Notes: generated by a model not told the origin, from the letters alone. A stretch of 64,000 nucleotides of DNA from Thermoplasmatota archaeon (GCA_029939595.1 JAOZSQ010000002.1:2761-66760); one strand, 5' to 3'; shown: positions 5,652 through 50,132, numbered from the stretch's first letter. Numbers and translations: made by a program.

Positions 5652-5667
5652 TTTTTTCTCTCCATAT

Positions 5668-6909: not shown

Positions 6910-7214
6910 GGTTTTCCTCCAAAGTCAATCCTTAGCATTGGTAAACAAAGAACAATATTTAAAATTATCACACATATAAACAAAATAATTTTTGTGATTC
7001 ACATGTATAAACGAAGTTGTATTGCATGCTTGAAAAATGACAAAATGACACAAAAGATTTAAATAAGTTAAATGTGAAAGTATAACAGCGAGGATCCTGG
7101 GAAAAAACCTTTTTTCCTTCCATCTTCACTATCCTACCAGGCTCCTCCCATCTCTCTCTAAACTTTTATCATCTAATGAAAATTATTAGTAGAAAAAAGA
7201 ATGGAAAAGAGATA

Positions 7215-7589: not shown

Positions 7590-7691
7590 CTCACACTCCA
7601 GAATAAATCCAGATATATGAATACATGATGTACCTTATAAACGTTTTTCTTAGATATTACTCTGAAAAATAAAAATATAAAAAAAGTATAA

Positions 7692-8045
7692 TTAATCGAC
7701 AATCGTAAAATCCTTTGCAAATCCATAAACATATGATATCATACCAAAAGGACCTGGTGTATAAGTCAAGAAAAATGGTGTTTTTGTTAAAGAAATCTCT
7801 GTAAGACCTCTAACAATCCCTGCTTTTTTAATAAGTAAACCTGATTGAAAATAAAAAAGATAGAGGGCATTTGCTGTGAGAGTATCATTTGTTTCATGAG
7901 GATTTATAATAGTACCAATAATAAGTGTGCTATCAAAAATACCTGACTGTGAAATGGGGGCCTCATCAGTTGATTCTGATTGTACAATAACTGTTGAGAG
8001 AAATACAAGCATACACACTATTCCAAATGAAATTTCTTTTCTCAT
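7692..8045 (-). CDS. Small secreted hypothetical protein
   Basis: N-terminal signal peptide (MRKEISFGIVCMLVFLSTVIV). No recognisable domain. Confidence 0.4.
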   Translation of the reverse strand: MRKEISFGIVCMLVFLSTVIVQSESTDEAPISQSGIFDSTLIIGTIINPHETNDTLTANALYLFYFQSGLLIKKAGIVRGLTEISLTKTPFFLTYTPGPFGMISYVYGFAKDFTIVD

Positions 8046-9258: not shown

Positions 9259-10617
9259 TTAGGTTAAAAAGACATTGTTATTCATTTTAAACAATGAATT
9301 ATGGTAATTTATAACATTTTGTGAGGAATCCATTGAAACTCCTCCTTCTTTAAATAATGAATATAGTAGAGCTTGTACTGCAATATTTCCAATTGTTGAC
9401 ATTGATGTATAAGCAGGGTTTCCATTTGCAAAATAAATCAAACCAATATCTTCTGATGGCATATAGAGCATCCATGTATCAACACCCATGATATCTCCTC
9501 CATGGCCCATTGCAGTTTGAGTTTTACTAATGGGATACCCCATCCATGCAAGACCATATCTAAGTGCATTATCGTCTTGGAGATCATGCATCAGGTCAAC
9601 TGTCTCTTTTTCTAGGATACGAGTGTTTTGGTAAACACCATCATTCATATGGGCAATTAGAAAATGAGAAAGATCATTAATTGTTGTATACAGACCGCCT
9701 GCGGGGTAACATCGAATTTTCCAGTGTGACTGTGGAGGGAATAAATCTCCATAAAGAAATGAGAGCTCATTAATCTGATAATATTTACCATAAACCGACA
9801 GGTAGGGAATTGCAACGTTTTCAATGTCTAATGTTGAAAGATTAAAGCTAGTGTTATGCATGTTTAATGGATCAAAAATATATTCTTGGCAATATGGCAA
9901 GAATTTTTCTCCCGAAATTATTTCTGTTAGATATGATATCAGATCAAAACCAACATTAGCATACATTGCCTGCTCTCCCGGTTTATAGATATTGCTCCAT
10001 ACATCTTCATGGTAATATTTACCACCAGGAACCAAGAATTCCTCAAGGAATGGTTCAGGGAAATAATCAAAAGGTGGATCCTCTGAATTATTCATCCAAT
10101 AATACACATCTCTTGTATTCATATTAAGACTTGAAGTATGAGATAGAAGCATACGAAATGATATAGGATCATCAGGGAAATGAGGGTTTCGAAGATCAAA
10201 AGGTAAATAATTATTTACATCCTCCCCTAGATCAAATAAACCTTTTTCATATTGTTGCATTAAGGCAGTTCCAACAATTGTTTTTGTAATCGATGCAATT
10301 AGATAAATCGTATCAGGCGTGGGTTCTTTTTTCTCTGAAAGATCATAAAAACCATATCCCTTAGACCAAACAATCTCATTATCATTAATGATACATGCTG
10401 AAATAGATGGAAACCTTGCAAGCTTCATAAAAAAAGAGATTTTTTGATCAAAAAGAGCATTATTTAAGCTTATTTTTAAGTCAGTAGTTTTTGTGTTAAA
10501 AATATCTTTTGTTTCTTCTATATTATCTGCATTTGATAAAGGAGAAAGAATGCTTATGTTACAAAAAATAAAAAGGATGGAAAAAACAAAAATTTTTTTC
10601 ATTAATCTTTTATCCAT
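9259..10617 (-). CDS. Secreted beta-lactamase-fold serine hydrolase (PBP/class C beta-lactamase/D-aminopeptidase-like)
   Basis: Signal peptide present. The SxxK motif (ASITKT) sits at the expected position. Size is 452 aa. Confidence 0.6.
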   Translation of the reverse strand: MDKRLMKKIFVFSILFIFCNISILSPLSNADNIEETKDIFNTKTTDLKISLNNALFDQKISFFMKLARFPSISACIINDNEIVWSKGYGFYDLSEKKEPTPDTIYLIASITKTIVGTALMQQYEKGLFDLGEDVNNYLPFDLRNPHFPDDPISFRMLLSHTSSLNMNTRDVYYWMNNSEDPPFDYFPEPFLEEFLVPGGKYYHEDVWSNIYKPGEQAMYANVGFDLISYLTEIISGEKFLPYCQEYIFDPLNMHNTSFNLSTLDIENVAIPYLSVYGKYYQINELSFLYGDLFPPQSHWKIRCYPAGGLYTTINDLSHFLIAHMNDGVYQNTRILEKETVDLMHDLQDDNALRYGLAWMGYPISKTQTAMGHGGDIMGVDTWMLYMPSEDIGLIYFANGNPAYTSMSTIGNIAVQALLYSLFKEGGVSMDSSQNVINYHNSLFKMNNNVFLT

Positions 10618-10644: not shown

Positions 10645-12075
10645 TTAATATCCTCCAATCATTAAACTAGGATCTCCCATCATAATATATGATTGTAGTA
10701 CCTGTACATCCACCCATGTATCTCTAAGGATCGTATCATCTGTTGCATGCCAATCAACAGGATATGTATCTAAATACCAATTCATCGCTTGTTTTAAGAC
10801 ATCTCCTGCATGATCAGTACCTAGCGTCCCATATTGATGAAACAGTTCCCTTTCAAATTCATTGATACCACCTGCAAAACTTGTTTTATCTTCTTGGGTG
10901 TGACCAAGAGCAGTTGTTCCATAGGTGACAATTGATCCACCTTGCGGGTTTTTTGTCATAAGCCAACCCCAACCATTAGGGATCCATTCATATCGGTAAA
11001 TTAATTTTTCTGTTAAAAAACCTAGGCCATGTTCCATGAAACCTGCTAAAAGTTTATCTAAACCTACATCAAATTGACAGTTATGACATCCACTTACAAT
11101 ACATATTGAATAAAGCTCTGAATTTGAGAGTTTTTTTATGTCTTTTGTGTTCAATCCATCTATAAATTCATGGTCATTGGGTTTATGAGTCCCCCATGAT
11201 TTAGGGCTTCCATGTCCAACGAAATATACAAATCCATAACCTTTGTTGAATTCATTAATGACATCATTAGGCTCTGAAAATCCGTCTTCTGATAAATACA
11301 TCCTGGTAGGGGTAAAACCAGTCATGTTTTCAATAGCATATTCAGCAAATATCTCGCCTTCATATCCTTTCCATAATGGATTTAGGCTTTCAAGATATGT
11401 GTCTCCTGCAATGTTAAGAAAAGTATTAAATCGATCTATATTTTTTGTCTCAGTCTCATAATGTATAATTTTATTAACCATTATTTCGACTTCATTTATG
11501 TTTCGACATGGAATCCTTCCAAGGGAGATATCTGGACATAAGTCAATGTCCTGATCATCTGGAATTTCTCCTTCGATCCATTCACCATATCGTCCATCTC
11601 GGTCTGAATCCCAACTGGAAAACTTACCGCATGAATCATAGATATCTGCAAAATAAAGATCACTGACATAATGTGGTTCCCATCCATTGTTCATGTCTAC
11701 ATAACGAACAGGTAGATGCCAAGATCCTCTTTGTCCTTGTTTACCACCGACTAGTAATACATAAGAAATATCGTTATATTCTATTGCAGATTTGATATAA
11801 TACTTCATTTTTTCAGCATCATCCCTACCCATTGCAGTATCAGGATGAGCAAGAATGGTTTCAAGAGTAACCATCATTGTTTCAATCCCAAATTGTTCTT
11901 TATGTTCTACAAGTGGCTGAAGTGTTTGTTCAAAATCAGCAGGAGTGATGATCAATAAATCTTTCAGTTCAATTGTAGTTGTTTCTGCTTTAAAAACTGA
12001 TCCTGTAAGGCTCCCAGTCATTAATAGGACAATTGTGAAACAGGATGTCAATCCGATGAATGTTCTATTTTTCAT
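10645..12075 (-). CDS. Secreted clan-CD cysteine peptidase, gingipain (C25)-like
   Basis: Signal peptide present. The His block is YFVGHGSPKSWG and the Cys block is ICIVSGCHNCQFD. It is paralogous to the next gene. Confidence 0.55.
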   Translation of the reverse strand: MKNRTFIGLTSCFTIVLLMTGSLTGSVFKAETTTIELKDLLIITPADFEQTLQPLVEHKEQFGIETMMVTLETILAHPDTAMGRDDAEKMKYYIKSAIEYNDISYVLLVGGKQGQRGSWHLPVRYVDMNNGWEPHYVSDLYFADIYDSCGKFSSWDSDRDGRYGEWIEGEIPDDQDIDLCPDISLGRIPCRNINEVEIMVNKIIHYETETKNIDRFNTFLNIAGDTYLESLNPLWKGYEGEIFAEYAIENMTGFTPTRMYLSEDGFSEPNDVINEFNKGYGFVYFVGHGSPKSWGTHKPNDHEFIDGLNTKDIKKLSNSELYSICIVSGCHNCQFDVGLDKLLAGFMEHGLGFLTEKLIYRYEWIPNGWGWLMTKNPQGGSIVTYGTTALGHTQEDKTSFAGGINEFERELFHQYGTLGTDHAGDVLKQAMNWYLDTYPVDWHATDDTILRDTWVDVQVLQSYIMMGDPSLMIGGY

Positions 12076-12180
12076 ATATAATTCCCCTTATATTATTGAA
12101 TGTAATTTAACCTTAATAAAGATTTACAAATAAAAATAGGACGAAACGTAATTAATATCTAAGGGCATTTGAGTTTTGAT

Positions 12181-13614
12181 TTAAGGATATCCACCGATAC
12201 GAAGACTTGGATCACCAAACAAGGTCCATTCAGAAGGAGTTTTTGCATCAATTGATGCATCAGACCCTGCGGGCTGATTCCAATCAATAGGATACTCCTC
12301 AATATAATTAGAAACAGATTGCATCCATACATCACCCAGACATTCATGACGTTCGTTGCCATATTCAACAAAGAACTGAATATCCATAAAATCTCCTGCC
12401 CCATCCATAGAATCCTTGTCTTCCTTGCTCATCCCCAGACCCGTGTTTGATATTGTTGCAATACTGCCTCCAAAAGGATGACTTGTTAACTTCCATGCCC
12501 AACATTCCCTGCCCCATTCACCATAATTCACAGGTTCATCACTTAAATGAAGATCAAAAAGAACTCGATGAAGAAACTTAATTGGTTCAACATCAAATTG
12601 TCCATTATGGCAGGCAGGAGCAACAACTATAGGAAGTTTATATCCATTCATCAAAAAGTTCATATGATAATTTTTCAAGCCCCATATTGTCGGATCATCA
12701 GGACCTGCATTTGGACCATGAGTACCCCAAGCAATAGGTGATGCATGACCATCAAAATGCATAAACCCACAACCTTTATTAATCGTTTTAATAACATCTA
12801 TTGGACCATTAAACTCTCCATTTGACGTCCAAAGTCTAATAGGAGTAAATCCAGTCATGTTTTCAATGGAGCGCTCAGTGTTTTCCTCACCTTCAAATGG
12901 ATCTGTATTAAATTCATACTCACCTGGTGGATAGGTATCTCCTGCAACACAAACAAAACGATTGAACCATTCCTCACCATAAGTATTTGTTTCATAATGA
13001 ATGATTTTATTGACCATAGTTTTTACTTCAAAGCTGTTTCTGCAGGCAAGCCTGCCAAGGGCAACTTCTGGAAAAAGATCAATATCAGTGTCTTGTGCAT
13101 GTGAACCATACCATTCACCAAAAACATTATTGTTATTACTATTCCAATCAGAAAAACCACCTGAATCATCATAAATATCAGCATAATAAAGCTCAGATAT
13201 ATAACGGGGTTCATAATAATCCGAAGGCTCATTACTGTAAATATATCGAATAGGCATTAATCTAAAATCACCTACCAATAATACGAAATGTACATCCCAA
13301 TAATCATAAGCATATTTAATGAAATATTTGATTTTTTCAGGGTTATCACGACCATGCCAAAACATCTCATCATAAACTGTTGAAAGTGAGACTAATTTTG
13401 TATTCAAACCCATCTGCTCTTTATGTTCTACAAGTGGCAATAAAAGATCATGAAAACTGTCGGGGGTGAGGATTAGAAGATCATAGATTGAATCTTGATT
13501 AGTAGAAGGTTTTGATATTGTAGAGGGAAGAGAGGTATACAAAAGTATGAAAATAATTCCCAATATTATGATTTTTTTATTTACTGCTTTTCTTAAAATA
13601 TAGGCCCCATTCAT
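12181..13614 (-). CDS. Secreted clan-CD cysteine peptidase, gingipain (C25)-like (paralog)
   Basis: The His block is MHFDGHASPIAWG and the Cys block is VVAPACHNGQFD. The likely start is the internal Met (MNGAYILRK..., signal peptide) at 13614, not the track start 13701, which overlaps the upstream gene. Confidence 0.55.
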   Translation of the reverse strand: MNGAYILRKAVNKKIIILGIIFILLYTSLPSTISKPSTNQDSIYDLLILTPDSFHDLLLPLVEHKEQMGLNTKLVSLSTVYDEMFWHGRDNPEKIKYFIKYAYDYWDVHFVLLVGDFRLMPIRYIYSNEPSDYYEPRYISELYYADIYDDSGGFSDWNSNNNNVFGEWYGSHAQDTDIDLFPEVALGRLACRNSFEVKTMVNKIIHYETNTYGEEWFNRFVCVAGDTYPPGEYEFNTDPFEGEENTERSIENMTGFTPIRLWTSNGEFNGPIDVIKTINKGCGFMHFDGHASPIAWGTHGPNAGPDDPTIWGLKNYHMNFLMNGYKLPIVVAPACHNGQFDVEPIKFLHRVLFDLHLSDEPVNYGEWGRECWAWKLTSHPFGGSIATISNTGLGMSKEDKDSMDGAGDFMDIQFFVEYGNERHECLGDVWMQSVSNYIEEYPIDWNQPAGSDASIDAKTPSEWTLFGDPSLRIGGYP

Positions 13615-13684
13615 ATAGTACATAATATATTCATTATCCTTAATAAAATATACGGAAATTTTTATATCTGAATATTTGATTTTT

Positions 13685-15952
13685 CTACAAATGAAAAACA
13701 AAGAATTCTAGTGTATCAAACATGACGTTATTGTTTCTATATGCTGCTGCTTTTAATGTAAATGTTCCAAACCCCTTTTCAGAAAATTCCCATTTAAATG
13801 GTGGATTCATAACAGTTTCTCTTAATTCATCATCAAGGCTAAAAACAACATAATCAAACCCTTCATTTTCTGATAATATTGACTCTATTTGAAAAGTAAG
13901 GGACCCAAGAGAAATAATCTTATCTGAATCAAATATCTTATTTCCAAAAAGATAAAACCCTGGCAAAGGTTCTGAAATCTCAATCTGAAAAATATCTTGT
14001 TGTATCGTATCAACCTGATTATCTTTATTGAAAATATTTAGAGTTACAGTATAAGACCTGTTTTTCTTAAAAGAATAGTTGGGGGTTTTTTCACTAGTAG
14101 TATTACCATCTCCAAAATCCCAGATCCGATTAGAAATACATCCTCTGGACATATCAGTAAATTGTATTGTTAGATTAGTTCCATCATCTAATTGATTAAA
14201 GCTAAAATCTGCAAAAAGAGGATTATTTTCCCAAAGATGCAATGAGGGATCTCCAAGTAGATTATAGCATTCCATGTAATATCTGCTATTTCCTGATCCC
14301 CCATGAGTGGTATATAATTTTTGAAGACTTGCAGAAGTCATACCTCCAATAGTTGTTATGTTATCATCCCACCAAGATGAAAAAAGGAATCGTTCTAGGT
14401 CATCATCCTCATCCCACATAGTAAGAGTTGAAGATCCAAAGAAGCCAATTGATCCTTTATTAGATTCCACTAACCATGTTTCACCAAAACATTCATCTAT
14501 TAAAAAATTTCCAGTTAAACATGAAAATGAACAGACAAAGGGAAATAAGTTAGCATCTGAAAGATCACTTAGATCATTTCTATTAAATTTAGGACCATCT
14601 TCCCATCCAGCCATACTACCATGACCTGAATATATAATTAAACCACGACCATCATTAATCGCATCAATAACCTGATTTGTTGTTGCCTTATATGCAGCAG
14701 TATAAAGTTTATCACAACTGTAATTTCTGGGATTTAAATAAGTGTCAATAACATAATTGTGTGTCCCCTCAGAAATTCGATGTTCATCTTGAGATGCTAG
14801 AAAAGATGCATTTTTAACATAATGTTTCTGAAAGTTACCACTTTGATACAAAATAGTTTTATTAACCATGTTTTTAACATGTGTTTCATCTGATGCAGGA
14901 AATCTTCCAGTAATAATGTCTGCAAAAAGATCATTGTCTATTGTGCTATAATAAAGATCTGTGGCAGATTTTGAGTCTTCACCTTTAAATGTTGGAATGT
15001 ATTCAATGTCTCCTACTAAAAGAAGGTAAACAGGAGGTATACTCCAAGAATTATATGCTGATTTAATGAAAGATTGTATAGTTTTTGAAGTGAGATTATC
15101 CCCAATAAAAGAAGTATTTACTATGGTAACAGCATATCCCTCCGTTTCTTTATATTTGGCAAATGGGAGAATTTCTTGATAAAAATCATCATAGGTTAGA
15201 ATAAGATAACCTTCTTTTTCGTTTGGAATTGTTGTTTTAGAATTACTGTTTGAATTCAAAAAAAGAAAGCTGGTTAATTGTTGAAATGTCTCTGATTCAT
15301 ATTTTTTTCCCAACGGTGTATTCTCGGATGAGGATTGAGAATATATGATTTCAATCTCACATGAAGTTAAAACCTGCAGATCACCTGTTGAAGGTTTATA
15401 TCTGACTGGAGAGATCTCAATAAGTGCAAAATGATGATTTCTAATATTTCCTGTCTCCAAGATTATAACGGTTTCATCTGACATATAATACTCATTGGAG
15501 TAATATTCATGATCAATGATTGAGATTTCATTTTTGAAAGAAGATACTTTTTCTTGTGATGGCTGTAAAGGAATTATCATAGAAGGGAAATTTTCATCTA
15601 TTAATGAAATATCATCCCAAGATTGAGAATTGATATTCACTACTGCTTGTACGTTTGGTGGCAATTCAATCATCCTTCTAATTTTTGGAAGTTTAGCAAT
15701 GCCAATCTCTGTTGAAAAACCTTCATTTAAATATGAAATGTGAGAAAATGATCCTTCATCTGTTTCAATTAATGTAATTGTTGGAGAGGGTAGAGAAATA
15801 GAAAGTTTTATGAAATCATTATTTTGGTTTTGATTAATTTCAATATATGAAGATTGTGGGATATATTTTGCATTAAGTGAAATAAACCCTGACCCTAGTA
15901 ATAGAATACCGATAAGAATTACACTTTTTATTCGATGTATTCTTTGTTTCAT
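13685..15952 (-). CDS. Secreted clan-CD (C25-like) cysteine peptidase with a C-terminal PKD domain
   Basis: Signal peptide present. The His block is IIYSGHGSMAGW and the Cys block is FPFVCSFSCLTGNF. The PKD motif is RIWDFGDGNTTSEKTPNYSFKKNRSYTVTLNIFNKDNQ. Confidence 0.6.
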   Translation of the reverse strand: MKQRIHRIKSVILIGILLLGSGFISLNAKYIPQSSYIEINQNQNNDFIKLSISLPSPTITLIETDEGSFSHISYLNEGFSTEIGIAKLPKIRRMIELPPNVQAVVNINSQSWDDISLIDENFPSMIIPLQPSQEKVSSFKNEISIIDHEYYSNEYYMSDETVIILETGNIRNHHFALIEISPVRYKPSTGDLQVLTSCEIEIIYSQSSSENTPLGKKYESETFQQLTSFLFLNSNSNSKTTIPNEKEGYLILTYDDFYQEILPFAKYKETEGYAVTIVNTSFIGDNLTSKTIQSFIKSAYNSWSIPPVYLLLVGDIEYIPTFKGEDSKSATDLYYSTIDNDLFADIITGRFPASDETHVKNMVNKTILYQSGNFQKHYVKNASFLASQDEHRISEGTHNYVIDTYLNPRNYSCDKLYTAAYKATTNQVIDAINDGRGLIIYSGHGSMAGWEDGPKFNRNDLSDLSDANLFPFVCSFSCLTGNFLIDECFGETWLVESNKGSIGFFGSSTLTMWDEDDDLERFLFSSWWDDNITTIGGMTSASLQKLYTTHGGSGNSRYYMECYNLLGDPSLHLWENNPLFADFSFNQLDDGTNLTIQFTDMSRGCISNRIWDFGDGNTTSEKTPNYSFKKNRSYTVTLNIFNKDNQVDTIQQDIFQIEISEPLPGFYLFGNKIFDSDKIISLGSLTFQIESILSENEGFDYVVFSLDDELRETVMNPPFKWEFSEKGFGTFTLKAAAYRNNNVMFDTLEFFVFHL

Positions 15953-28950: not shown

Positions 28951-28973
28951 TGTATATTACTCTCCTATTTCTA

Positions 28974-34759: not shown

Positions 34760-36355
34760 ATGGGGACAAAAAAATTAATTTCAATAATGCTTGTATTATT
34801 AATGTTTTCATCAATTTCTCAAATTGGAATTGCAACTCAGAAAACAAATCCACAATTAAAAGATTCAATTAAAGAAAAACTTGATCTTATACAAGATGCA
34901 ATTAACGATAAAAAAGCAGATTGGGTTGCTGGTCATAATAATATTTTTACAGATAAAATAGATTTTATTGAAGAGTTTCTTGGATGCAATCTCAATGAAA
35001 GTGAGATTATTAATCAAGATGAACCAATTTCAACTTCTGATCTTCCAGCATCTTATGATTGGAGGAATGTTGATGGATTGAACTATGTAACTTCAATAAA
35101 AAATCAAGCAAGTTGTGGAAGTTGTGTGGGATTTGCAACTATTGGTGCATTAGAGGCTGTTGTTCAAATTGAGGCAGGAGAAATTTTTGATTGTGATTTA
35201 TCAGAATCACATTTATTTTTTTGTGGTGGAGGTTCTTGTGGTGGAGGATGGTTTCCAGAAGAAGCTACTGATTTTGTGGAAAATGTAGGAGTAGTTGATG
35301 AACTCTGTTTTCCATATAGTTCTTATGATTTAAACTGTGATCAAAAACAATCAAATTGGAAATCGCGAGTAATTAAAGCAAAAAATACTGGATCTACCTC
35401 AGAAAATCAAAATATAAAAGATGCATTAATTACATATGGACCTCTTTTAACAACATTTAAAGTTTATGATGATTTCAGTAGTTATAATGGGGGCATCTAT
35501 GAGCACGTATGGGGAAATCAAGTTGGAGGCCATGCAGTAGTAATCATTGGTTATAATGATGATCCGGGATATTGGATATGTAAAAATAGTTGGGGTGAAG
35601 GTTGGGGTGAAGACGGATTCTTCAATATTAAATATAGAGAATGTAAAATAGATAAAAAGGTATATTTCTTTGATCAAATAATTGGAAATATTCAACCCTC
35701 AAAACCTAAAATCATTCAACCAATAAATGGGGAAAATTCTCTTGATACAGATATTACTCTTCAATGGGATCAAAGTTATGATATTGATGGAGATTTTATT
35801 TCATACGCTGTTTATTTAAATGAAGGTCATAAAATTGATTTAGATTCAGAACCAATTGTATCAGGACTAGCAACAAATTCATATGAAATCAATAAATTAA
35901 AAAAAGACACAATTTATTCATGGCAAGTTGTTTCAGAAGATGCACAAGGATCTCAACATAGCGTTGGAAAAAATTTATTTTTCACTCGATCGCCATTTGC
36001 GCCAATAATATCAGGCCCTAAACAAATTAAAAATGATAAATCCTATACATATATTGCCTCAACTGAGGATACTGATGGATCAGAATACTATTGGTTTTTT
36101 CAATGGGGTGATGATGAAAATTCAGGTTGGCTAGGCCCATATAATTCAGGTGAAAAAGTAAGTGCGAGCCATACTTGGAGCGATGATGGAGATTATACTA
36201 TTAAAGTTAGATATAAAGAAGATGGTATTGAAAGTGATGTGGGTTCGATAGAGATAAGCAACACAAAAACTAGAACGGGTTTTTTTAATTTCATTTGTGA
36301 GTTTTTAAATCACAATTTACTAAAATATTTTTTTCCACAACAATTATTTTTATAA
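34760..36355 (+). CDS. Secreted papain-family (C1A) cysteine peptidase followed by an FN3/PKD-like region and the shared PKD-like C-terminal module with tail
   Basis: Signal peptide present. The active-site Cys is QASCGSCVGFA, the His is GGHAVVIIGY and the Asn/Trp is KNSWGEGWG. The C-terminal block is FQWGDDENSGWLGPYNSGE...DYTIKVRYKEDGIESDVGS. The tail is KTRTGFFNFICEFLNHNLLKYFF. Confidence 0.75.
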   Translation: MGTKKLISIMLVLLMFSSISQIGIATQKTNPQLKDSIKEKLDLIQDAINDKKADWVAGHNNIFTDKIDFIEEFLGCNLNESEIINQDEPISTSDLPASYDWRNVDGLNYVTSIKNQASCGSCVGFATIGALEAVVQIEAGEIFDCDLSESHLFFCGGGSCGGGWFPEEATDFVENVGVVDELCFPYSSYDLNCDQKQSNWKSRVIKAKNTGSTSENQNIKDALITYGPLLTTFKVYDDFSSYNGGIYEHVWGNQVGGHAVVIIGYNDDPGYWICKNSWGEGWGEDGFFNIKYRECKIDKKVYFFDQIIGNIQPSKPKIIQPINGENSLDTDITLQWDQSYDIDGDFISYAVYLNEGHKIDLDSEPIVSGLATNSYEINKLKKDTIYSWQVVSEDAQGSQHSVGKNLFFTRSPFAPIISGPKQIKNDKSYTYIASTEDTDGSEYYWFFQWGDDENSGWLGPYNSGEKVSASHTWSDDGDYTIKVRYKEDGIESDVGSIEISNTKTRTGFFNFICEFLNHNLLKYFFPQQLFL

Positions 36356-40783: not shown

Positions 40784-42202
40784 ATGAAAAAAAAATTGGT
40801 TGTTTGTATAATAATAAGTCTATTTTTAATTAGCTATATTCCTTCGGGTTATGCGTTAATAAATAATCAGAGTATTGATCAGATGGAAAGAGGTCAATAC
40901 AAGTTGGTTGATAAGAACACTTTTTCAAAACAAAATTTAGAACATGGATTAATGAGGCCTGATGGTAACACGTTAAAAGAATGGAAAGAAGATTATTTTA
41001 AGGCAGAAAAAGCATATATTAATCCAAAATTAGCAAATAATATCATTGCAACTTCAAGTTATAGTATTTTAGATCTGTTGAATTATGTACCATCTGAAAG
41101 AAATCAGGGTTGGTGTGGAAATTGTTGGGCGTGGCCTGCTACAAGTGTTGTTGAAATCGCCCTCAATGTTCAAGAAGGGATTTATGAACGTTTATCTGTA
41201 CAATATATAAATTCTTGTGGATCTCAGGTGGGCGTAGGTTGTTGTGATGGAGGAAACCTAGATATTTTCTGCAGGTTTTATCGAAAAACAGATATAACGA
41301 TTCCATGGTCAAATACAAATGCGGATTGGCAAGATAATAGGGCTCAATGTGATACTTCATGCGATAGCATCTCAACAACACCATATTATCCAATATCTTC
41401 AATTTATGCAAGAACAATTGAAACACATGAAATTTCAGAAGAACAAGCAATTTCAAATATAAAAAATATACTTCATCAGCAGAAAGGCGTCTATTTTAGT
41501 TTTATATTGCCCGATGATGAATATCTAACTCATTTCAATGATTTTTGGAGTGATCAAAAAGAGGAAGATGTGTATAATATTGACTGGGCATGTGGTAAAG
41601 AATATATTGAAGATGAAGGTGCAGGTCATGCTGTTTTATGTGTAGGATACAACGATGAAGAGGGTATAGAAAATGATTATTGGATTATGCTGAACAGTTG
41701 GGGTATCACATCTGATAGATCCACAGGATTATTTCGTATGAATATGCATATGGATTATGATTGCACAATTGTTTATCAGAATCATGATTACTATTCATTT
41801 GATTTTGAAACATTAAATGTAACATTTACATCAGATGATGGAGCACCAAACCCTCCTGAAATACAAGGACCTAGCTCAGTTAAAAAAGATGAATCGAATA
41901 CATATCAAATAACAACAATAGATGTTCAAAACGATGAAGTATTTTATAAAATTGATTGGGATGATGGAACGGTAGATGGTTGGATTGGTCCATATTTGTC
42001 AGGTGAAACCATTGAAGTAAATCATTCTTGGGCAAAAAAAGATACTTATGTTATACATGTAAAAGCAAAGGATATCAATGAAGATGAAAGTCTTTGGTCT
42101 ACATTTGAAGTTAGTTTGTCAAAGAGAAAAGACATGGATTTTACATGGATACAATGGTTGTTTCAAAGAATCAATATTCTTTTTCCTTTTATTGTAAAAT
42201 AA
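40784..42202 (+). CDS. Secreted papain-family (C1) cysteine peptidase with the shared PKD-like C-terminal module and tail
   Basis: The active-site Cys is NQGWCGNCWAWPA, the His is AGHAVLCVGY and the Asn/Trp is LNSWG. The C-terminal block is KIDWDDGTVDGWIGPYLSGETIEVNHSWAKKDTYVIHVKAKDINEDESLWS. The tail is KRKDMDFTWIQWLFQRINILFPFIVK. Confidence 0.7.
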   Translation: MKKKLVVCIIISLFLISYIPSGYALINNQSIDQMERGQYKLVDKNTFSKQNLEHGLMRPDGNTLKEWKEDYFKAEKAYINPKLANNIIATSSYSILDLLNYVPSERNQGWCGNCWAWPATSVVEIALNVQEGIYERLSVQYINSCGSQVGVGCCDGGNLDIFCRFYRKTDITIPWSNTNADWQDNRAQCDTSCDSISTTPYYPISSIYARTIETHEISEEQAISNIKNILHQQKGVYFSFILPDDEYLTHFNDFWSDQKEEDVYNIDWACGKEYIEDEGAGHAVLCVGYNDEEGIENDYWIMLNSWGITSDRSTGLFRMNMHMDYDCTIVYQNHDYYSFDFETLNVTFTSDDGAPNPPEIQGPSSVKKDESNTYQITTIDVQNDEVFYKIDWDDGTVDGWIGPYLSGETIEVNHSWAKKDTYVIHVKAKDINEDESLWSTFEVSLSKRKDMDFTWIQWLFQRINILFPFIVK

Positions 42203-44083: not shown

Positions 44084-46270
44084 ATGAATAAAATTTATTA
44101 TTTATTTATAATTATAAGTTTATTAATTAATTCATCCATTGCCATTAGCCTTAATCAAGATGAAGATTTAAAAATAATATATAACTTTGATTCTCCTTCA
44201 TTTCAAAAGATACAGATAAATGGAACAATTTATGATGAGATCACAATTCCAAATCTTTCAACGATGGCAGACCCTGGATTACCAAGTTTGCCTATAAAGG
44301 GTGGTTATATTAGTATACCATATAATTCAAATGTTAAAAGTATATCTGCAACATATTCTAACCAGATAAACTTAGGGAAAGGATTTATTATAAAACCAGG
44401 GTCAACACCCGTTCCAATGTCACATCAAGAACAAGCCCAAGCACCAATTGCAAATACTCAAATTTATACATCTGATACTATGTATCCAGGGACATTATAT
44501 TCTGAGATTGGAACTTATAAATGTAAAGGATTTGAAATTCTTGTTCTTACGTTACATCCTATTCAATACATACCTAAAACTGGAGAAATAATTTTTTATT
44601 CCTCTATCGAAATTACTATTGAAGTTTCAGAAAAACAGAATAATTATTTAGAATCACGAGGCTTAGAAGAAGATATAATTCAAATTAATAATATGGTTGA
44701 TAATCCCCAAATATTGAATTCATATCCTCTAAAAACAAAAACAACATCAATGGAATCTTATGATTATCTTATTATTACTACTCAGGAATTAAAAGAAGGA
44801 TTTATCCCATTACAACAGACACAAGAAAAAAGAGGGATTAAAACACAAATAAAAACACTTCGTGATATTACTTTAACTCCGAATTATATAACACCAGAAG
44901 ATATCAGAGAATATATAAAACAGCAATATCAACATAATGGAATTGAGTATGTATTAATTGGTGGTGATGCAGATATTGTACCTGCAAAAATGCTTTATGT
45001 CTATGGACTTGATGAGGAGAAATGGCCATATGAAACATTTTTACCTTCGGACTTGTATTATTCTTGTTTAGATGGAACCTATAATAATGATGGGGATGAT
45101 CGTTGGGGTGAACCAACAGATGGAGAAAATGGAAATGATGTTGATCTTTTCGCTGAGGTATATGTAGGTAGAGCAAGTGTTGGGGATTTAATTGAAGTAG
45201 GATATTTTGTAAATAAAACTATCTCTTATTTATCCACCTCTAATTCTAATGAGTATATCAATACATTTCTTATGGCAGGGGAATATCTTGGTAGCCATGG
45301 TGTTGCTAGTTGGGGTGGAAATTATCTAGATCTTCTTATTGATGAGGCATCTGAAGATGGTTATATAACATCCGGCATTCCTTCTGAAAAATTTCAAATT
45401 AATAAATTATACGATCGTGAAAATGAATGGACTGCAAATGATATGATCAATGCAATAAACGATGGTGTTCATGTAATAAATCATGATGGACATTCTAATT
45501 ATGGGTATAATATGAAGATGGTAAATGGTCATGTTTATTCATTAACAAATGATGAGTATTGTTTTGCTTATTCAGTTGGATGTATGGCAGGTGGCTTTGA
45601 TGATCCTCAAGGGTCTGACTGTTTTGCTGAATATCTTACTGTAAAAACTGATCATGGAGCATTTGCAGCTATCATGAATGCAAGGTATGGTTGGTTTTGG
45701 TCTCATAGTACTGATGGTGATGGAACAAGATTTGCACGTGAATTTTGGGATAGTGTTTTTGGTGAAAAAACACCTGTGATAAGTAAAGCAAATCAAGATT
45801 CAAAAGAAGATAACCTGTATCTCATAGGTCGTTCTTGTATGAGGTGGACATATTATGAATTAAATCTCTTTGGAGATCCAACTATTTCACTTCGTGTAAG
45901 TGAACCCCCAAATACACCAGATATGCCAAATGGACCTCAAACTGGAAAAATAAAAATAAATTACGAATATGCAACAACTTCAATTGATTCTGAAGGGGAT
46001 GATATATATTATCTCTTTAATTGGGGAGATGGAACGTATTCTGAATGGCTTGGCCCTTATTCTTCAGGGGAAGAAATCAAAGAAGAACATCAATGGCTTG
46101 AACATGGCGATTATCAAATACAAGTGAAAGCAAAGGATGAACATGGTGCAGAAAGTGAATGGTCAGATTATCTTATACTAAACATTCCAAAAAATAAAAA
46201 CATTCAATTTCCGTTTCTTGAATGGATTATAGAACAAATTTATTTTCTTAAAATGTTTTTTCTTAATTAG
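44084..46270 (+). CDS. Secreted clan-CD (C25 gingipain-like) cysteine peptidase with an N-terminal propeptide-like region and the shared PKD-like C-terminal module with tail
   Basis: The His block is VINHDGHSNYGY and the Cys block is FAYSVGCMAGGFDD. The C-terminal block is FNWGDGTYSEWLGPYSSGEEIKEEHQWLEHGDYQIQVKAKDEHGAESEWS. The tail is PKNKNIQFPFLEWIIEQIYFLKMFFLN. Confidence 0.65.
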   Translation: MNKIYYLFIIISLLINSSIAISLNQDEDLKIIYNFDSPSFQKIQINGTIYDEITIPNLSTMADPGLPSLPIKGGYISIPYNSNVKSISATYSNQINLGKGFIIKPGSTPVPMSHQEQAQAPIANTQIYTSDTMYPGTLYSEIGTYKCKGFEILVLTLHPIQYIPKTGEIIFYSSIEITIEVSEKQNNYLESRGLEEDIIQINNMVDNPQILNSYPLKTKTTSMESYDYLIITTQELKEGFIPLQQTQEKRGIKTQIKTLRDITLTPNYITPEDIREYIKQQYQHNGIEYVLIGGDADIVPAKMLYVYGLDEEKWPYETFLPSDLYYSCLDGTYNNDGDDRWGEPTDGENGNDVDLFAEVYVGRASVGDLIEVGYFVNKTISYLSTSNSNEYINTFLMAGEYLGSHGVASWGGNYLDLLIDEASEDGYITSGIPSEKFQINKLYDRENEWTANDMINAINDGVHVINHDGHSNYGYNMKMVNGHVYSLTNDEYCFAYSVGCMAGGFDDPQGSDCFAEYLTVKTDHGAFAAIMNARYGWFWSHSTDGDGTRFAREFWDSVFGEKTPVISKANQDSKEDNLYLIGRSCMRWTYYELNLFGDPTISLRVSEPPNTPDMPNGPQTGKIKINYEYATTSIDSEGDDIYYLFNWGDGTYSEWLGPYSSGEEIKEEHQWLEHGDYQIQVKAKDEHGAESEWSDYLILNIPKNKNIQFPFLEWIIEQIYFLKMFFLN

Positions 46271-46427: not shown

Positions 46428-49400
46428 TTAGGATAATATTGGTACCGGTTCAACCCATGTTGGATTATAGACTTGAAGTGTTGGATCACCAAAAATTACA
46501 TTGTTGCTACTGATTCCATCGGCAAAAAATGATGCACTACCATATACTGATGATGGATCACCAGTTGTAAAATCTCTATTGACAATCCAGTGGGATTGTG
46601 AGAAAGCTTCACCAAGTGTGTATCCTTTGATTAATACATCTCGAAGAATCCATGTTTTATATAAATCATCAACAAGTGTATATCCAGAGCCTAAACATCC
46701 TGCATAAAGAGCAGTTCCATGAGATAGATATACAATTGGGCCAAAATGAGATGTAGTTGTACAGGAGCTCCAAATATCTATTTCACTATGTAGATTTTCA
46801 AATAATTGATCAACCCATTTAAAATGAATCAGATCATAAAGGCTTGGTTCTTCTGCATTATAAATTGACATTGATTGATCTCGGATTGTTTTTGTCTGAC
46901 GTTCATCATAACCTGAATAACCTGCCCATGAATCCCACCATTCAAAGTCATATAATGACTCATGGTATGGTTCTGCAAGCGGAAATTGTTCTTTCATATT
47001 TTTGTATTGTGAAGATATTCCTGATCCACCTGTGCCATGACCTGAATAAATTGAGATTAATGCACCCTTGTTATATCGTTCTAAAAAGTTTTCCCACATA
47101 CAATGACCTTCATAAAACCGGTTAAATGATGAAAATGAATTTTTATTGTCTCGTGGTGCATAAGTTGTATATCTTACACCATCATTGCCAGTATGGTCAT
47201 ATTGCCCTGTAAAATAGTTCATATGTTGCGATGTTGTAACATCTTTTCCAGGGTTGGCATAAATAAGTGCTGGATAGAGGATATTACGAACAATTATTGC
47301 AGATGAAAAAGCAGTTGTTTCGACAGGAATTAAACCAGCATATGAGTTATTTCCAGTCATCGCTCTTCCAATTGAATCGCGGATGTCAGTGTCCCTTGGT
47401 GAAACAAAAATGTAGATCTCCTGTCCTTCATTATCAAGACCATACTCGTCAATAAGAGAATGTAAATCATCATATACTGTTGTTAACCATTGCATTTTTA
47501 GATCAAGTCCAAATGGTGGAAGTGTTTGATCATTTGTAAAAAAGTATATGATTAAATCCAACAATGAAGGAGGATTTGTCATTCCTATTGGTTCATCCAT
47601 CATTGGAAGATGACCTAGTGATCGAGTTCCATGGTAGTAATCTCCAGTGAATTCTCGATAGGTTTGATACATATCAATTGTATTGTAGGCATCTTTTGCC
47701 TCTGCAATATTAATAACTGGACTTCCATGGAATGCAGCAATCATGCCAGATGGGCCAAAATATCCATCTCCAGTTGCAAAAGATGTAACCGTAATGACGT
47801 TTTCGGAATTTGAATCTGTTTTTATCGCCGTTATTACATCCTGTAATGTTGAATATTTTGTTACTGTTCCACTAGGGGATGCTGCGCTAACGTCATCAAT
47901 ATTTACAAAGATTATATTTGATATTCCTAATTCAGTTAAAGTATTTGATGTTTCAGATGGAACCTCATTTTCATTTACATAAAGGAGTGGTACATGTTTT
48001 TGAGAGGCAAGTACTGCTGCATTTGCTGCTGACAAGCCTGCTGCAACACGATTTGGATTATGTTCTCTTATTGTAGCTTGAATGTGATATGATCCATCAA
48101 ATGATGCATCCCATGTATCAAGATTTAAATAAGGTACCACTAGTGCAGTCCATGTTCCCTGCATTGGATTATGGATTTCAACTGAGAATTCAGTGTGAGG
48201 GTCAATTATCATATGTCGATATTCGTCTTCATCATGTTCCCAATGTCCACCGTTCCATTGATGTATTGGTTTAATTTCTCCCCCATTCCAATGAGGATAT
48301 TGTGGTCGTCTAACATTTCCTTCTGGATCAATAAGATATGCAATTAAATCTGATTCAGACTGGGTTGAAAGCGTTACCTTTAAACTGCTATCAGATGGTC
48401 CAACATCAATTGTATGGCGATTTCCTGAATATTTCATTACCGTTAGTGCTTCTAACCCCTCTATATCTGTAACATGTGGAACCCAGATACCAGGTTTTGT
48501 TATTGGGAAAAACGTGTCTTTATCTGCACCATTTGAACCACTATCATGAGGCCACCAATCTGCCATAAATGCTTCATATCTTGGTGTTAATACCATTGTG
48601 TCTCCTGCGAATTCATCTCCTTCTGCTTGGAGATATATTGCAGCCCATTTTGATCCAATATACATTGTTTTTGAGTAAAAATCAGAAGAAAACTCTGTTA
48701 AATCACCAGGTAGAAATCTATCGGTTTCCTTTTCACATGATAAAGATACATCTTGATCGATTACAATATTGATTATGTCCTCAAAGTTACTACCATCAAT
48801 TGCAAGTACTGCTGTATCGACTGTCTCCCAATGTTGGGTTGCAATATCTGCGGCTGCTTGAATTGGATCTAATGGAATTAGATATTCTTGTGGTGTCAAA
48901 TCATGACGGTCAAGATAAGTATTCCAGTCATCAAGTAAATATTGGGTGGTATCATCAATGGATGTGAACCAATTTGGAATTATATCGTTACCTTGATAGA
49001 CAATTGGAGAAACATATCGTTTTCCATTTTCAATATAATTGGCAGCTGGAATTGCTGCTAAATACCCATATTCATCTTTTGTACTTTCTTGATCATCATT
49101 AATTATGAATGTTTGTGCTATTGGAATGATTTCATTTTGTAAGGGTTTCAACGATGGCGGCGCTTCTGCTTCACCTCCAAGAGATAATTCAAGTTCATAT
49201 ACCCCGGAACCATACAAGTAATAATTATCAGGCCACTTACTTTCATCCCAACCTGGGAAGATATCAATTTGAATTTTCCATGTTCCCGTGATGTCTGCAG
49301 GATATTCTAATATATCTTCACCATAGAATTGTGCTGAATGTACATGTTCTCCATTTGGATTATATAGATGAATATCAAAATCCGATTCTTCTTCGGGTTT

Positions 49401-50132
49401 AACTTCAACAAATATTCCGCTGCCTGAGGAAACATCAAAACTATACCAATCCTCCCAGTCATTATAATCTAAATATCCAACATGTGATCCGGTGGTAATT
49501 TTGATTGCAGACCCAATTGAATTACCCGCATCAGATCCTGAATCTGCATCGTTTTGACCCTGCAATATGACATTAAATGTATATTCGCCTGCTTGATCAT
49601 TTATTGAATAAATATTTATGAAAAACCATCCTGTTTCTCCTGCCACATTCCCACTTGGGATGATTTCTTCATTTCCGTTATATATCTCAATAACAAATTG
49701 AGAGGGGGAAACTGATGAAATAATTGTTTGACCTTCACATGCAGTGAATCGATAACAATCCGCATCATCACCCTCATCAGGATCTAATGTTCCAGTTCTG
49801 CCTCTACCTGGAATTTTTTCATTTACGGGTTCACCAATATAAACTTCATAAGATCTACGAAGTGTATCACCAGCATCGATATTATATCCAATATCGTTCT
49901 GCTCATCAGCCAATGATACGCTTTCAGAGGGTAAATATCTCATCATATCAGTTGTTTTTGTGATATCGATGGAATTTATTGATTCAGTGTTTTCAGTATA
50001 TATTTCAATTGGGTTGTATTTGTTTTCTGTATTCCTTTGAAATGATAGTGCTGTAAGTGTTGGAGTTACAAGCATGATACTGATCATTATGATGAAAAAA
50101 CCTGCCTTACCTAATCCTTTTCTATTTTTCAT
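46428..50132 (-). CDS. Large (1234 aa) secreted multidomain protein with PPC-like (pre-peptidase C-terminal) beta-sandwich domains and a C-terminal clan-CD-like peptidase region
   Basis: Signal peptide present. PPC-like blocks are DADCYRFTACEGQTI and EDWYSFDVSSGSGIFVEVKPEEESDFDIHLYNPNGE. The C-terminal His block is LISIYSGHGTGGSG and the Cys block is EIDIWSSCTTTSHFGP. The protein ends with FGDPTLQVY as in the tandem C25 genes. Confidence 0.5.
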   Translation of the reverse strand: MKNRKGLGKAGFFIIMISIMLVTPTLTALSFQRNTENKYNPIEIYTENTESINSIDITKTTDMMRYLPSESVSLADEQNDIGYNIDAGDTLRRSYEVYIGEPVNEKIPGRGRTGTLDPDEGDDADCYRFTACEGQTIISSVSPSQFVIEIYNGNEEIIPSGNVAGETGWFFINIYSINDQAGEYTFNVILQGQNDADSGSDAGNSIGSAIKITTGSHVGYLDYNDWEDWYSFDVSSGSGIFVEVKPEEESDFDIHLYNPNGEHVHSAQFYGEDILEYPADITGTWKIQIDIFPGWDESKWPDNYYLYGSGVYELELSLGGEAEAPPSLKPLQNEIIPIAQTFIINDDQESTKDEYGYLAAIPAANYIENGKRYVSPIVYQGNDIIPNWFTSIDDTTQYLLDDWNTYLDRHDLTPQEYLIPLDPIQAAADIATQHWETVDTAVLAIDGSNFEDIINIVIDQDVSLSCEKETDRFLPGDLTEFSSDFYSKTMYIGSKWAAIYLQAEGDEFAGDTMVLTPRYEAFMADWWPHDSGSNGADKDTFFPITKPGIWVPHVTDIEGLEALTVMKYSGNRHTIDVGPSDSSLKVTLSTQSESDLIAYLIDPEGNVRRPQYPHWNGGEIKPIHQWNGGHWEHDEDEYRHMIIDPHTEFSVEIHNPMQGTWTALVVPYLNLDTWDASFDGSYHIQATIREHNPNRVAAGLSAANAAVLASQKHVPLLYVNENEVPSETSNTLTELGISNIIFVNIDDVSAASPSGTVTKYSTLQDVITAIKTDSNSENVITVTSFATGDGYFGPSGMIAAFHGSPVINIAEAKDAYNTIDMYQTYREFTGDYYHGTRSLGHLPMMDEPIGMTNPPSLLDLIIYFFTNDQTLPPFGLDLKMQWLTTVYDDLHSLIDEYGLDNEGQEIYIFVSPRDTDIRDSIGRAMTGNNSYAGLIPVETTAFSSAIIVRNILYPALIYANPGKDVTTSQHMNYFTGQYDHTGNDGVRYTTYAPRDNKNSFSSFNRFYEGHCMWENFLERYNKGALISIYSGHGTGGSGISSQYKNMKEQFPLAEPYHESLYDFEWWDSWAGYSGYDERQTKTIRDQSMSIYNAEEPSLYDLIHFKWVDQLFENLHSEIDIWSSCTTTSHFGPIVYLSHGTALYAGCLGSGYTLVDDLYKTWILRDVLIKGYTLGEAFSQSHWIVNRDFTTGDPSSVYGSASFFADGISSNNVIFGDPTLQVYNPTWVEPVPILS

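Follow-up and report, generated by a model that had tools for sequence, protein, structure and literature searches.

Does this stretch of DNA encode genuine gingipain-type (family C25) peptidases, what would such enzymes do outside the cell, and is their number exceptional for an archaeon? The window (the whole stretch analysed, 64,000 nt) derives from a sediment archaeon, an uncultured member of the Thermoplasmatota, and encodes five predicted secreted proteins of this type. A sequence-only reading had described them as a tandem triplet plus two further copies, accompanied by C1 peptidases and a beta-lactamase-fold hydrolase, and all five open reading frames, designated A to E, are present where it had placed them. 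The strand of E, which it had left unstated, is minus. The two C1 peptidases and the hydrolase are likewise borne out by Pfam:

9259..10617, minus strand: predicted secreted beta-lactamase-fold (serine hydrolase) protein with an N-terminal hydrophobic segment (Pfam PF00144, E 1.8e-52)
10645..12075, minus strand: A, short-form C25 peptidase, 476 aa (Pfam PF01364, E 2.5e-53, 182 bits, model positions 2-373 of 374)
12181..13623, minus strand: B, short-form C25 peptidase and paralogue of A, 477-480 aa (Pfam PF01364, E 2.3e-57, 195 bits)
13685..15952, minus strand: C, canonical long-form C25 peptidase, 755 aa (Pfam Peptidase_C25 E 1.2e-66, 226 bits; Propeptide_C25 E 1.2e-11; PKD E 8e-10)
34760..36355, plus strand: predicted secreted papain-family (C1) peptidase with fn3 and PKD-like domains and a shared C-terminal tail (Pfam PF00112, E 9e-48)
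40784..42202, plus strand: second predicted secreted C1 peptidase, with the same PKD-like domain and tail as 34760..36355 (Pfam PF00112, E 2e-16)
44084..46270, plus strand: D, long-form C25 peptidase, 728 aa (Pfam Peptidase_C25 E 7.3e-53, 181 bits; Propeptide_C25 E 6e-15; PKD E 5e-6)
46428..50132, minus strand: E, predicted secreted multidomain protein, 1,234 aa (Pfam on the whole protein: PPC only)

Each of A to E begins with one signal-like segment, basic and then hydrophobic, and simple hydropathy, by which we judged signal peptides in place of a trained predictor, showed no further segment resembling a transmembrane helix; secretion of all five is therefore plausible. The start of B is most likely Met 13623 or 13614 (480 or 477 aa) as opposed to the TTG at 13701, and public gene calls for this protein give 477, 480 and 506 aa.

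We determined family membership by HMMER searches against Pfam, as the sequence-only reading had proposed. Peptidase_C25 (PF01364; cutoff 23 bits, model length 374) matched A to D at 181-226 bits over ∼373 of its 374 positions, scores that chance could by no means produce. Peptidase_C11 matched none of A to E. On the strength of these matches, of alignment to the Kgp and RgpB sequences in the PDB and, for A, of a structural model, A, B, C and D belong to family C25 of clan CD. The clostripain family (C11) is the other clan CD peptidase reported from archaea of the MBG-D/Thermoprofundales type; its members share with the window proteins the clan, a His/Cys dyad and secretion, and have Arg-P1 specificity, but differ in the Pfam result just given. 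All motifs quoted in the sequence-only reading were recovered in A to E, and two of the proteins do end as it described, A in GDPSLMIGGY and B in GDPSLRIGGY(P). Its His-Gly block is found in A, C and E only: the residue after the catalytic His is Ala in B and Ser in D, which lack the usual Gly.

The two short forms have the simplest architecture. In A an N-terminal signal or anchor segment is followed by the catalytic domain alone, without propeptide and without Ig or PKD domains. The His motif of A is YFVGHGSPKSW (aa 284-294, window 11194-11226; catalytic His288) and its Cys motif is IVSGCHNCQFD (aa 326-336, window 11068-11100; catalytic Cys330). Both residues are invariant across 57 homologues, and the A-family profile aligns them to His211 and Cys244 of RgpB (E 4e-20). 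An invariant Glu241 of the short form aligns with the S1 residue Asp163 of RgpB, with modest posterior probability. When the AF2 model of A (pLDDT 91.9) was searched with Foldseek, the best matches were RgpB structures (1cvr/4ief, E∼2e-19, TM 0.59-0.64), followed by Kgp (E 6e-16) and then by separase, the Craspase CHAT protease and caspase-8. By this model A, the one protein for which the fold is shown, has a gingipain/caspase-like alpha/beta fold; the model also indicates that the N-terminal helix may be a membrane anchor. In B, which is 42% identical to A across 471 aa, the corresponding motifs are MHFDGHASPIAW (aa 288-299, window 12727-12762), with His292 in a G-H-A context, and VVAPACHNGQFD (aa 333-344, window 12592-12627), with catalytic Cys338.

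C and D have the Propeptide_C25 prodomain, which Pfam did not find in A, B or E. In C the order is signal, Propeptide_C25, catalytic domain, PKD and a beta-rich C-terminal region, with the His motif IIYSGHGSMAGW (aa 439-450, window 14603-14638; catalytic His444) and the Cys motif FVCSFSCLTGNF (aa 472-483, window 14504-14539; catalytic Cys478). By phmmer C matched Kgp (4rbm, E 3e-27) and RgpB (1cvr, E 2e-24), and its H444, C478, D389 and D516 align with His444, Cys477, Asp388 and Asp516 of Kgp. Across 46 homologues all four are either invariant or conserved in no fewer than 90%; D516, equivalent to the S1 Asp516 of Kgp, is invariant and D389, equivalent to the triad Asp388, is conserved in at least 90%. 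D consists of a signal, Propeptide_C25, the catalytic domain, a PKD-like domain (matching PDB 4xed, E 1.5e-20) and an aromatic C-terminal tail. Its alignment to RgpB runs through His211 and Cys244, placing H470 and C500 on the catalytic positions; H470 lies in the motif VINHDGHSNYGY (window 45473-45508) in a G-H-S context, and C500 is the catalytic residue of FAYSVGCMAGGF (window 45563-45598).

The tandem triplet exists as three adjacent minus-strand C25 genes but is heterogeneous and old. Identity is 42% between A and B and ∼24% between either of these and C, and the architectures differ, which rules out a recent triplication. From these comparisons the triplet is best described as an old pair of short prodomain-less paralogues beside a canonical propeptide-C25-PKD enzyme.

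E required a different approach. BLASTP of E against A to D gave no significant match; full-length E aligned to the short form in hhalign with no more than 20% probability; and the E C-terminus, searched as a profile against PDB sequences, matched nothing but Cwp6, weakly and in a CWB2-like region (E 0.012). The Pfam C25 model scored 15.1 bits (E 0.014), below its cutoff, on the C-terminal 438 aa of E, and it matched 3 of 15 relatives of E, all below threshold (best E 6e-4). The C-terminal part did align to the short-form C25 profile in hhalign (53% probability, E 1.3e-4). Since direct comparisons with C25 gave nothing significant, we used a transitive search through intermediate sequences. 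The profile of the E C-terminus finds the proteins P0282 (E 6e-43) and P0283 (E 9e-43), which pass the Pfam C25 threshold in the same region with 43 and 48 bits, respectively, and BLASTP of E against P0283 (E 8e-21) aligns the His, the Cys and the GDP(S/T)L motif. Because its profile finds proteins that themselves pass this threshold, we count E as a C25; by this sequence-based route it is a divergent member of the family, and the count of five gingipain-like peptidases stands, A to D by Pfam and by alignment to Kgp and RgpB and E by transitive profile searches. The E profile also has P0409, a C11 protein, as a distant match, but the E-profile match and the C11 match occupy separate regions of it.

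E begins with the signal, followed by two PPC/collagen-binding-like beta-sandwiches and then by alpha/beta and beta-sandwich modules; its C-terminus is formed by a divergent C25-like catalytic domain. Near this end lie the His motif ISIYSGHGTGGSG (window 47019-47057; His1032), the Cys motif IDIWSSCTTTSHFG (window 46740-46781; Cys1124) and a GDPTLQVY motif (window 46467-46490). Within the E family H-G-T-G-G and S-C-T are invariant (66 homologues), and in the AF2 model (pLDDT 89.6) a beta-strand precedes both the His and the Cys motif. An insertion of ∼90 residues separates the two and is strongly conserved.

Compared with the gingipains RgpB and Kgp of Porphyromonas gingivalis (1CVR, 4IEF, 4RBM), the window proteins share the Pfam family, the aligned His and Cys and predicted secretion; C and D share the prodomain, C the equivalents of Kgp Asp388 and Asp516, and A the predicted fold (TM∼0.6). 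They differ in being archaeal, in their presumed Sec export, in an identity of only 16-25% and in their activity, which is predicted. PKD or PKD-like domains are found here in place of the IgSF and haemagglutinin-adhesin domains of gingipains; neither the prodomain nor an Ig-like domain is present in A and B, which also contain insertions, and E has another architecture altogether, including the insertion between His and Cys. Pfam and NCBIfam detected no Por_Secre_tail or other type IX C-terminal sorting domain in A to E. This domain marks the secretion route of Bacteroidota and not family C25 as such.

We consider it probable that A to E are Sec-exported C25 cysteine endopeptidases that break down extracellular protein for peptide scavenging. 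They belong to the family, their catalytic residues are conserved, A has the expected fold, all five have export-type N-terminal segments, and such proteins are widely conserved in the lineage. The N-terminal signal or anchor would direct the export of each. The long forms, C and D, are presumably zymogens whose active site is blocked by Propeptide_C25 for as long as this domain is attached. The catalytic dyad of His and Cys would then cut proteins outside the cell, probably after basic residues, since in C and, with modest posterior probability, in the short form an acidic residue aligns with the S1 Asp of gingipains. PKD, PPC and other beta-sandwich modules may keep the enzymes on their substrate or at the cell surface. 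In concert with the C1 peptidases encoded nearby and with other secreted hydrolases, A to E could convert detrital protein to peptides for uptake and fermentation. Our literature search found no biochemically characterised archaeal C25, and for this reason we infer the activity and P1 specificity of A to E; zymogen control and a nutritional role are deduced from sequence in the same way. Some points weigh against this picture: the position of the short forms beside LSM and L37e in many genomes would also fit cell maintenance, the short forms have neither the inhibitory prodomain nor the Ig-like domain of gingipains, so that any latency would need another basis, and the catalytic His of B and D is not followed by the usual Gly.

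The beta-lactamase-fold gene follows A on the minus strand at a distance of 27 bp and in some related loci sits between A and L37e/LSM. Further putative secreted proteins encoded nearby are NosD-like, PKD and BNR-like, and alignment of the tails shows that a C-terminal module and tail are common to four window proteins of differing catalytic type.

Some of these features allow a different role for the short forms. PorU, a member of C25, acts as the sortase of type IX secretion in bacteria and works at the cell surface, and A and B might similarly be maturation enzymes that trim or attach secreted proteins, not feeding enzymes; the neighbouring secreted proteins with the C-terminal PKD-like domain and aromatic tail would be candidate substrates. 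Such a role would suit genes that are conserved as two orthologous groups, occur in the tandem order B then A in 17 of 24 testable related loci and often adjoin LSM, L37e and PUA housekeeping genes in related genomes; a complete 2.3-Mb chromosome keeps one A-type and one B-type gene at separate sites. The missing propeptide, the possible anchor helix and the module shared by the four proteins are also consistent with it. The short-form profile does match PorU (6za2, E 2e-8), with which it has the C25 catalytic domain in common, but it is far closer to RgpB, and NCBIfam PorU (NF033707; cutoff 420) gives only 59, 64 and 83 bits for A, B and C and no match for D and E, so that we rejected PorU membership for all five. 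Moreover, we know of no type IX secretion system in Archaea, the link between the tail and A/B and its cleavage site are putative, and gene order by itself is no guide to function. We think it unlikely that A and B are maturation enzymes of this kind. A broader proposal strikes us as possible, if doubtful: that the E type, with its unique multi-module architecture, is a deep unrecognised branch of C25, and/or that the A/B pair works together on the cell's own surface proteins. If so, the tandem, kept across the order beside housekeeping genes, could for example form a heteromer that matures or turns over those proteins instead of feeding the cell, with substrates that could include the carriers of the shared PKD-like-plus-aromatic-tail module.

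A further reading, which we consider quite improbable, makes pseudo-peptidases of some of the five: E in the first place, and perhaps B and D, would have lost catalysis and serve at the surface in binding or as structural proteins. The sub-threshold Pfam score of E, its many binding-type beta-sandwich modules and its long insertion, as well as the His-Ala of B and His-Ser of D, could be read in this way. However, dead homologues usually lose the nucleophile, and His and Cys are invariant in the 66 E-family members and in the short-form family; the insertion of E is itself strongly conserved, and in E a beta-strand precedes each of the two catalytic positions, which is the arrangement of clan CD enzymes. 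We give hardly any credence to the view that the peptidases are weapons against other cells or hosts, or that the cluster was acquired recently from Bacteroidota or is a bacterial contaminant. Gingipains are Porphyromonas virulence factors, and in 27 Thermoprofundales genomes one study located C25 genes on predicted plasmids (PMC9585477). Yet the C25 genes of the window have archaeal housekeeping genes as neighbours (L37e, LSM, FolD, FlaI-type ATPases and an Elp3-like gene) and lie in DNA of even G+C content, for which reason we reject contamination or recent transfer; nearly all homologues with a named source (among >1,200 found for A and >1,500 for C) are from Thermoplasmatota; and Pfam and NCBIfam revealed no toxin gene, immunity gene or type IX C-terminal domain near A to E. 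Nothing in our analysis favours the attack on other cells that the sequence-only reading had offered as one possible function, while its other suggestion, peptide scavenging, is the reading already published for the lineage.

Extracellular proteolysis, our preferred reading, also agrees with what has been reported for related archaea. Identical proteins are public as hypothetical proteins in Guaymas Basin Thermoplasmatales/Thermoplasmata MAGs. Orthologues of window proteins carry the name "C25 family cysteine peptidase"; the Thermoprofundales MAGs M11B2D, M9B1D and 3300003432D contain those of A and B, and SG8-52-3 contains one of C. The source organism is related to MBG-D/Thermoprofundales, and from this sharing of orthologues it is likely a member of that group. 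"Gingipain-like" extracellular C25 peptidases were described there earlier (Lloyd 2013, as cited in PMC6461988, PMC9585477 and PMC6752024; Zhou 2018). Eight Thermoprofundales MAGs have 6-15 extracellular C25 genes each, which are among their most transcribed peptidase genes (PMC6461988). In metagenomes of White Oak River sediments C25 accounts for 41-45% of signal-peptide-bearing peptidase genes, and these sediments rapidly hydrolyse endopeptidase substrates with Arg at P1 (PMC6752024). Five copies are thus not unusual for this lineage: the "striking expansion for an archaeon" is real but is a typical trait that had been described before, with 6-15 genes in each of the published MAGs. The gene families, the multi-copy pattern and the co-occurring C1A peptidases are the same as in the window. 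The available text of these reports counts C25 by MEROPS/Pfam and makes no mention of short prodomain-less forms, the B-then-A tandem or the E type.

Among the exported peptidases predicted for anoxic marine and estuarine sediments, C25 enzymes of the gingipain-like type are the most abundant, and they hold a central place in the view that buried protein is remineralised by uncultured archaea, which is one step of the global carbon cycle. The window leaves the current picture of sediment-archaeal C25 unchanged and provides a clean contiguous example of the gene repertoire of the lineage, with three architectural classes: the canonical propeptide form, the short prodomain-less pair and the very large divergent form. 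A to E supply candidates, with their catalytic residues, for what by our literature search could be the first biochemistry of an archaeal C25. The new points are modest and consist of the conserved short-form pair and an unannotated divergent C25 family. Proteins of this E type (∼1,230 aa, >250 homologues) are all labelled hypothetical or PPC-domain and are missed by Pfam, so that profile-based censuses of C25 may undercount. The members that bridge the E type and C25 come from MAGs labelled Odinarchaeota.

The sequence-only reading had proposed five secreted gingipain-like cysteine peptidases in the window (G+C ∼32%), and we assigned them to the following open reading frames (ORFs):

10645-12075, minus strand: A, 476 aa
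12181-13623, minus strand: B, 477-480 aa; a TTG-extended version reaches 13701
13685-15952, minus strand: C, 755 aa
44084-46270, plus strand: D, 728 aa
46428-50132, minus strand: E, 1,234 aa

A, B and C are co-directional within 10645-15952. All of the motifs originally quoted were found at the expected positions in A-E, but the term His-Gly block is appropriate only for A, C and E, since the catalytic His is followed by Ala in B and by Ser in D.

For A-D, profile searches placed the proteins in family C25 directly. Pfam Peptidase_C25 (cutoff 23 bits) matched each of them at 181-226 bits over essentially the whole 374-position model, and C and D (the long form) also contain a Propeptide_C25 and a PKD domain. 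When C was compared with PDB sequences by phmmer, the Porphyromonas gingivalis gingipains Kgp (4rbm, 3e-27) and RgpB (1cvr, 2e-24) were returned, and His444, Cys478, Asp389 and Asp516 of C aligned with positions 216, 249, 160 and 288 of the 4rbm chain. With this chain numbered from residue 229, these are His444, Cys477, Asp388 and Asp516 of Kgp, Asp388 being the third catalytic residue and Asp516 the Lys-pocket residue of S1. All 46 aligned homologues of C keep G443-H444-G445, C478 and E515-D516-D517, and at least 90% of them keep D389. The RgpB alignment of D likewise spans both catalytic residues. In a profile of 57 sequences of the short form (A/B-type, lacking a prodomain), the invariant residues His288 and Cys330 align with His211 and Cys244 of RgpB; Glu241, also invariant, aligns with Asp163 of S1 at only moderate posterior probability. 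An AlphaFold2 model of A (pLDDT 91.9, pTM 0.88) had as its top PDB matches RgpB (E-value ∼2e-19, TM 0.59-0.64) and Kgp, followed by separase, the Craspase CHAT protease and caspase-8, all clan CD enzymes. A review of clan CD (PMC4357240) describes the RgpB architecture, in which the dyad sits where two strands end, Asp163 forms part of S1 and the prodomain is inhibitory; it also lists C25 as occurring in archaea.

Identification of E was less direct. Pfam recognized only a PPC domain in the whole protein, with no above-threshold C25; its C-terminal part gave a sub-threshold C25 match of 15 bits near the His motif, and BLASTP found no similarity between E and A-D. In a profile-profile comparison with short-form C25 the whole of E reached 20% probability and the catalytic part 53% (E-value 1.3e-4), with the His motif and the terminal GDP(S/T)L motif aligned. 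We searched 1.84 billion representative proteins with a 546-residue profile of the E C-terminus, which matched the proteins P0282 and P0283 at E-values of ∼1e-43 over profile positions 191-542. Both pass the Pfam C25 threshold in exactly the matched region (43 and 48 bits), as does P0354 (27 bits), while a further E-type match, P0351, lies just under it at 19 bits. P0283 and P0351 both come from MAGs that bear the label Odinarchaeota and are annotated as hypothetical. BLASTP of E against P0283 (28% identity, E-value 8e-21) aligned the His, the Cys and the GDP(S/T)L motif. Because these intermediates are recognized as C25 in the shared region and the P0283 alignment pairs the motifs, E is a divergent C25 homologue, which upholds the original count of five.

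More than 250 proteins of ∼1,230 aa make up the well-conserved family of E, and every one of them carries the label hypothetical or PPC-domain protein. Across 66 members H-G-T-G-G (His1032) and S-C-T (Cys1124) are invariant; the two catalytic residues are ∼92 residues apart in E versus 30-42 in A-D, and the intervening insertion is itself highly conserved. In a confident AlphaFold2 model of residues 35-1234 (pLDDT 89.6, pTM 0.90) each motif directly follows a β-strand within a C-terminal α/β domain, preceded by two PPC-type β-sandwiches and further modules. An E homologue adjoins a long-form C25 gene in another genome. Just upstream of the catalytic domain, an α/β module at residues ∼690-830 (window ∼47640-48060) shows weak likeness to the CWB2 cell-wall-binding domain (Cwp6 5j72, E-value 0.012). 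This module is repeated 2-5 times in many large proteins of 900-2,000 aa, four of which (P0295, P0302, P0307, P0312) had no Pfam match at all when scanned.

The exact D and E sequences are public as hypothetical proteins OYT29886 and OYT29885 of ‘Thermoplasmatales archaeon ex4572_165’, and A, B and C are near-identical to RLF58187, RLF58186 and RLF58185 of a ‘Thermoplasmata archaeon’ MAG, falling in the same 90%-identity clusters; these MAGs are Guaymas Basin assemblies. Homologues number more than 1,200 for A and more than 1,500 for C; of those with a source name, nearly all are from Thermoplasmatota, and many are annotated ‘C25 family cysteine peptidase’. Orthologues occur in several species-representative genomes, among them JdFR-43 and the Thermoprofundales MAGs M11B2D, M9B1D and 3300003432D. 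Reports of gingipain-like C25 peptidases from MBG-D/Thermoprofundales go back to Lloyd et al. 2013 (cited in PMC6461988, PMC9585477 and PMC6752024). According to Zhou et al. 2018 (PMC6461988), eight MAGs carry 6-15 extracellular C25 and 3-7 C01A genes each, and C25 transcripts are among the most abundant peptidase transcripts. In Steen et al. 2019 (PMC6752024), C25 makes up 41-45% of the peptidase genes with a signal peptide in metagenomes from estuarine sediments, and fast hydrolysis of Arg-P1 substrates is reported for those sediments. Given these reports and gene numbers, five C25 genes, although present as claimed, are typical of the lineage rather than a striking expansion, and the multi-C25 phenomenon has already been described for this archaeal group. 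New here are the large ‘hypothetical’ E-type family as a divergent C25 group that Pfam overlooks, the division into three architectural classes, and a conserved tandem of B followed by A.

A and B are 42% identical, the identity of either to C and D is ∼24-28%, and C shares 24% with D. Across 80 related loci we distinguished two orthologous groups, A-type and B-type. A B-type gene lies directly upstream of the A-type gene on the same strand in 17 of the 24 A-type loci with enough upstream sequence. Downstream, LSM occurs no more than 3.5 kb away in 10 of the 17 loci where this could be checked, frequently accompanied by L37e and a gene with a PUA domain; the window shows the same arrangement. 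One complete 2.3-Mb chromosome has one gene of each type at separate sites. The A/B pair is thus an old duplication that has been retained. The supposed tandem triplet is real as three adjacent minus-strand C25 genes, but C is a neighbour belonging to another architectural class. Since C, B, A and the β-lactamase-fold gene lie on one strand, their co-transcription is possible; they are separated by ∼61-70 bp between C and B, 105 bp between B and A and 27 bp between A and the β-lactamase-fold gene. In more distant relatives (loci L004, L005 and L006) LSM comes after the A-type gene, and hutU and hutH, for histidine catabolism, come next. The window and its nearer relatives have LSM and L37e in inverted orientation with respect to A, with a β-lactamase-fold gene inserted, so that two synteny types surround a conserved C25-LSM junction. 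On L001 (JGI 3300005264 contig, 4218-7793) the counterparts of C and B are both broken into two ORFs (398+309 and 230+258 aa, respectively), although the protein sequence is 100% identical to the window; the breaks are frameshifts, from either sequencing errors or a population variant.

Judged by a simple Kyte-Doolittle hydropathy scan, each of A-E begins with a basic stretch and then a single hydrophobic segment; the scan found no further TM-like segments in them. The AlphaFold2 model of A shows this segment as a helix covering residues 2-20, with a linker of low confidence after it. Some twenty ORFs in the region from 9.2 to 58.5 kb (window 9200-58500) start similarly and make it a dense cluster of predicted-secreted proteins. 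Among them are two C1 peptidases and a β-lactamase-fold hydrolase, in line with the original description, as well as NosD-like β-helix proteins, a PKD protein and BNR-like proteins. Four predicted-secreted proteins with different catalytic domains (a NosD-like β-helix protein, both C1 peptidases and D) share a C-terminal module consisting of a PKD-like domain (PDB 4xed, E-value 1.5e-20), a Lys-rich spacer and an aromatic/hydrophobic tail of ∼20 residues. The features concerned are:

16301-20344: β-helix protein
26626-27681: lipobox-like Cys motif (FSGC)
29408-31015, plus strand: NosD-like β-helix protein; shared module
31152-32189, minus strand: similar tail at ORF end
34760-36355, plus strand: C1 peptidase; shared module
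37019-38641: BNR-like paralogue, ∼540 aa, in tandem with the next
38956-40587: ∼540-aa paralogue without Pfam matches
40784-42202, plus strand: C1 peptidase; shared module
42342-43232: β-helix protein; lipobox-like Cys motif (FQGC)
43355-43945, minus strand: similar tail at ORF end
44084-46270, plus strand: shared module (D)
51532-52785: lipobox-like Cys motif (FIGC)

None of the NCBIfam C-terminal sorting models recognizes the shared tail; the module could be an unrecognized archaeal sorting or anchoring signal.

The best-supported reading, which we consider quite probable and which agrees with the extracellular protein degradation and peptide scavenging first suggested, is that these are Cys/His-dependent endopeptidases. 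A-E would be exported via Sec, C and D being held in check by their prodomains, and would cleave extracellular protein jointly with the C1 peptidases, with basic residues as the likely P1 preference, to yield peptides for uptake. The main rival is that the prodomain-less, synteny-conserved A/B pair acts on the cell's own surface proteins, and the common PKD-like domain, Lys-rich spacer and aromatic tail on four neighbouring predicted-secreted proteins of unrelated catalytic types would provide candidate substrates. However, no sorting model recognizes that tail, NCBIfam scores for the family of PorU, a C25 sortase, are far under cutoff, and profile searches place the short forms nearer to RgpB than to PorU; we regard this role as rather improbable. 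There is little support for some of the peptidases being pseudo-enzymes, for a function in antagonism, or for the C25 genes being contamination.

Elsewhere in the window, GC skew changes sign at ∼26000-34000 (cumulative minimum near 29-30 kb), alongside a switch from mostly minus-strand to mostly plus-strand genes; no origin-associated gene was seen. Two tandem FlaI/T2SSE-type secretion ATPases occupy 588-4467 on the minus strand; the N-terminus of the upstream ATPase (2341-4467) is extended by a long Lys/Ser-rich stretch in which ∼60 residues are duplicated in tandem almost exactly.
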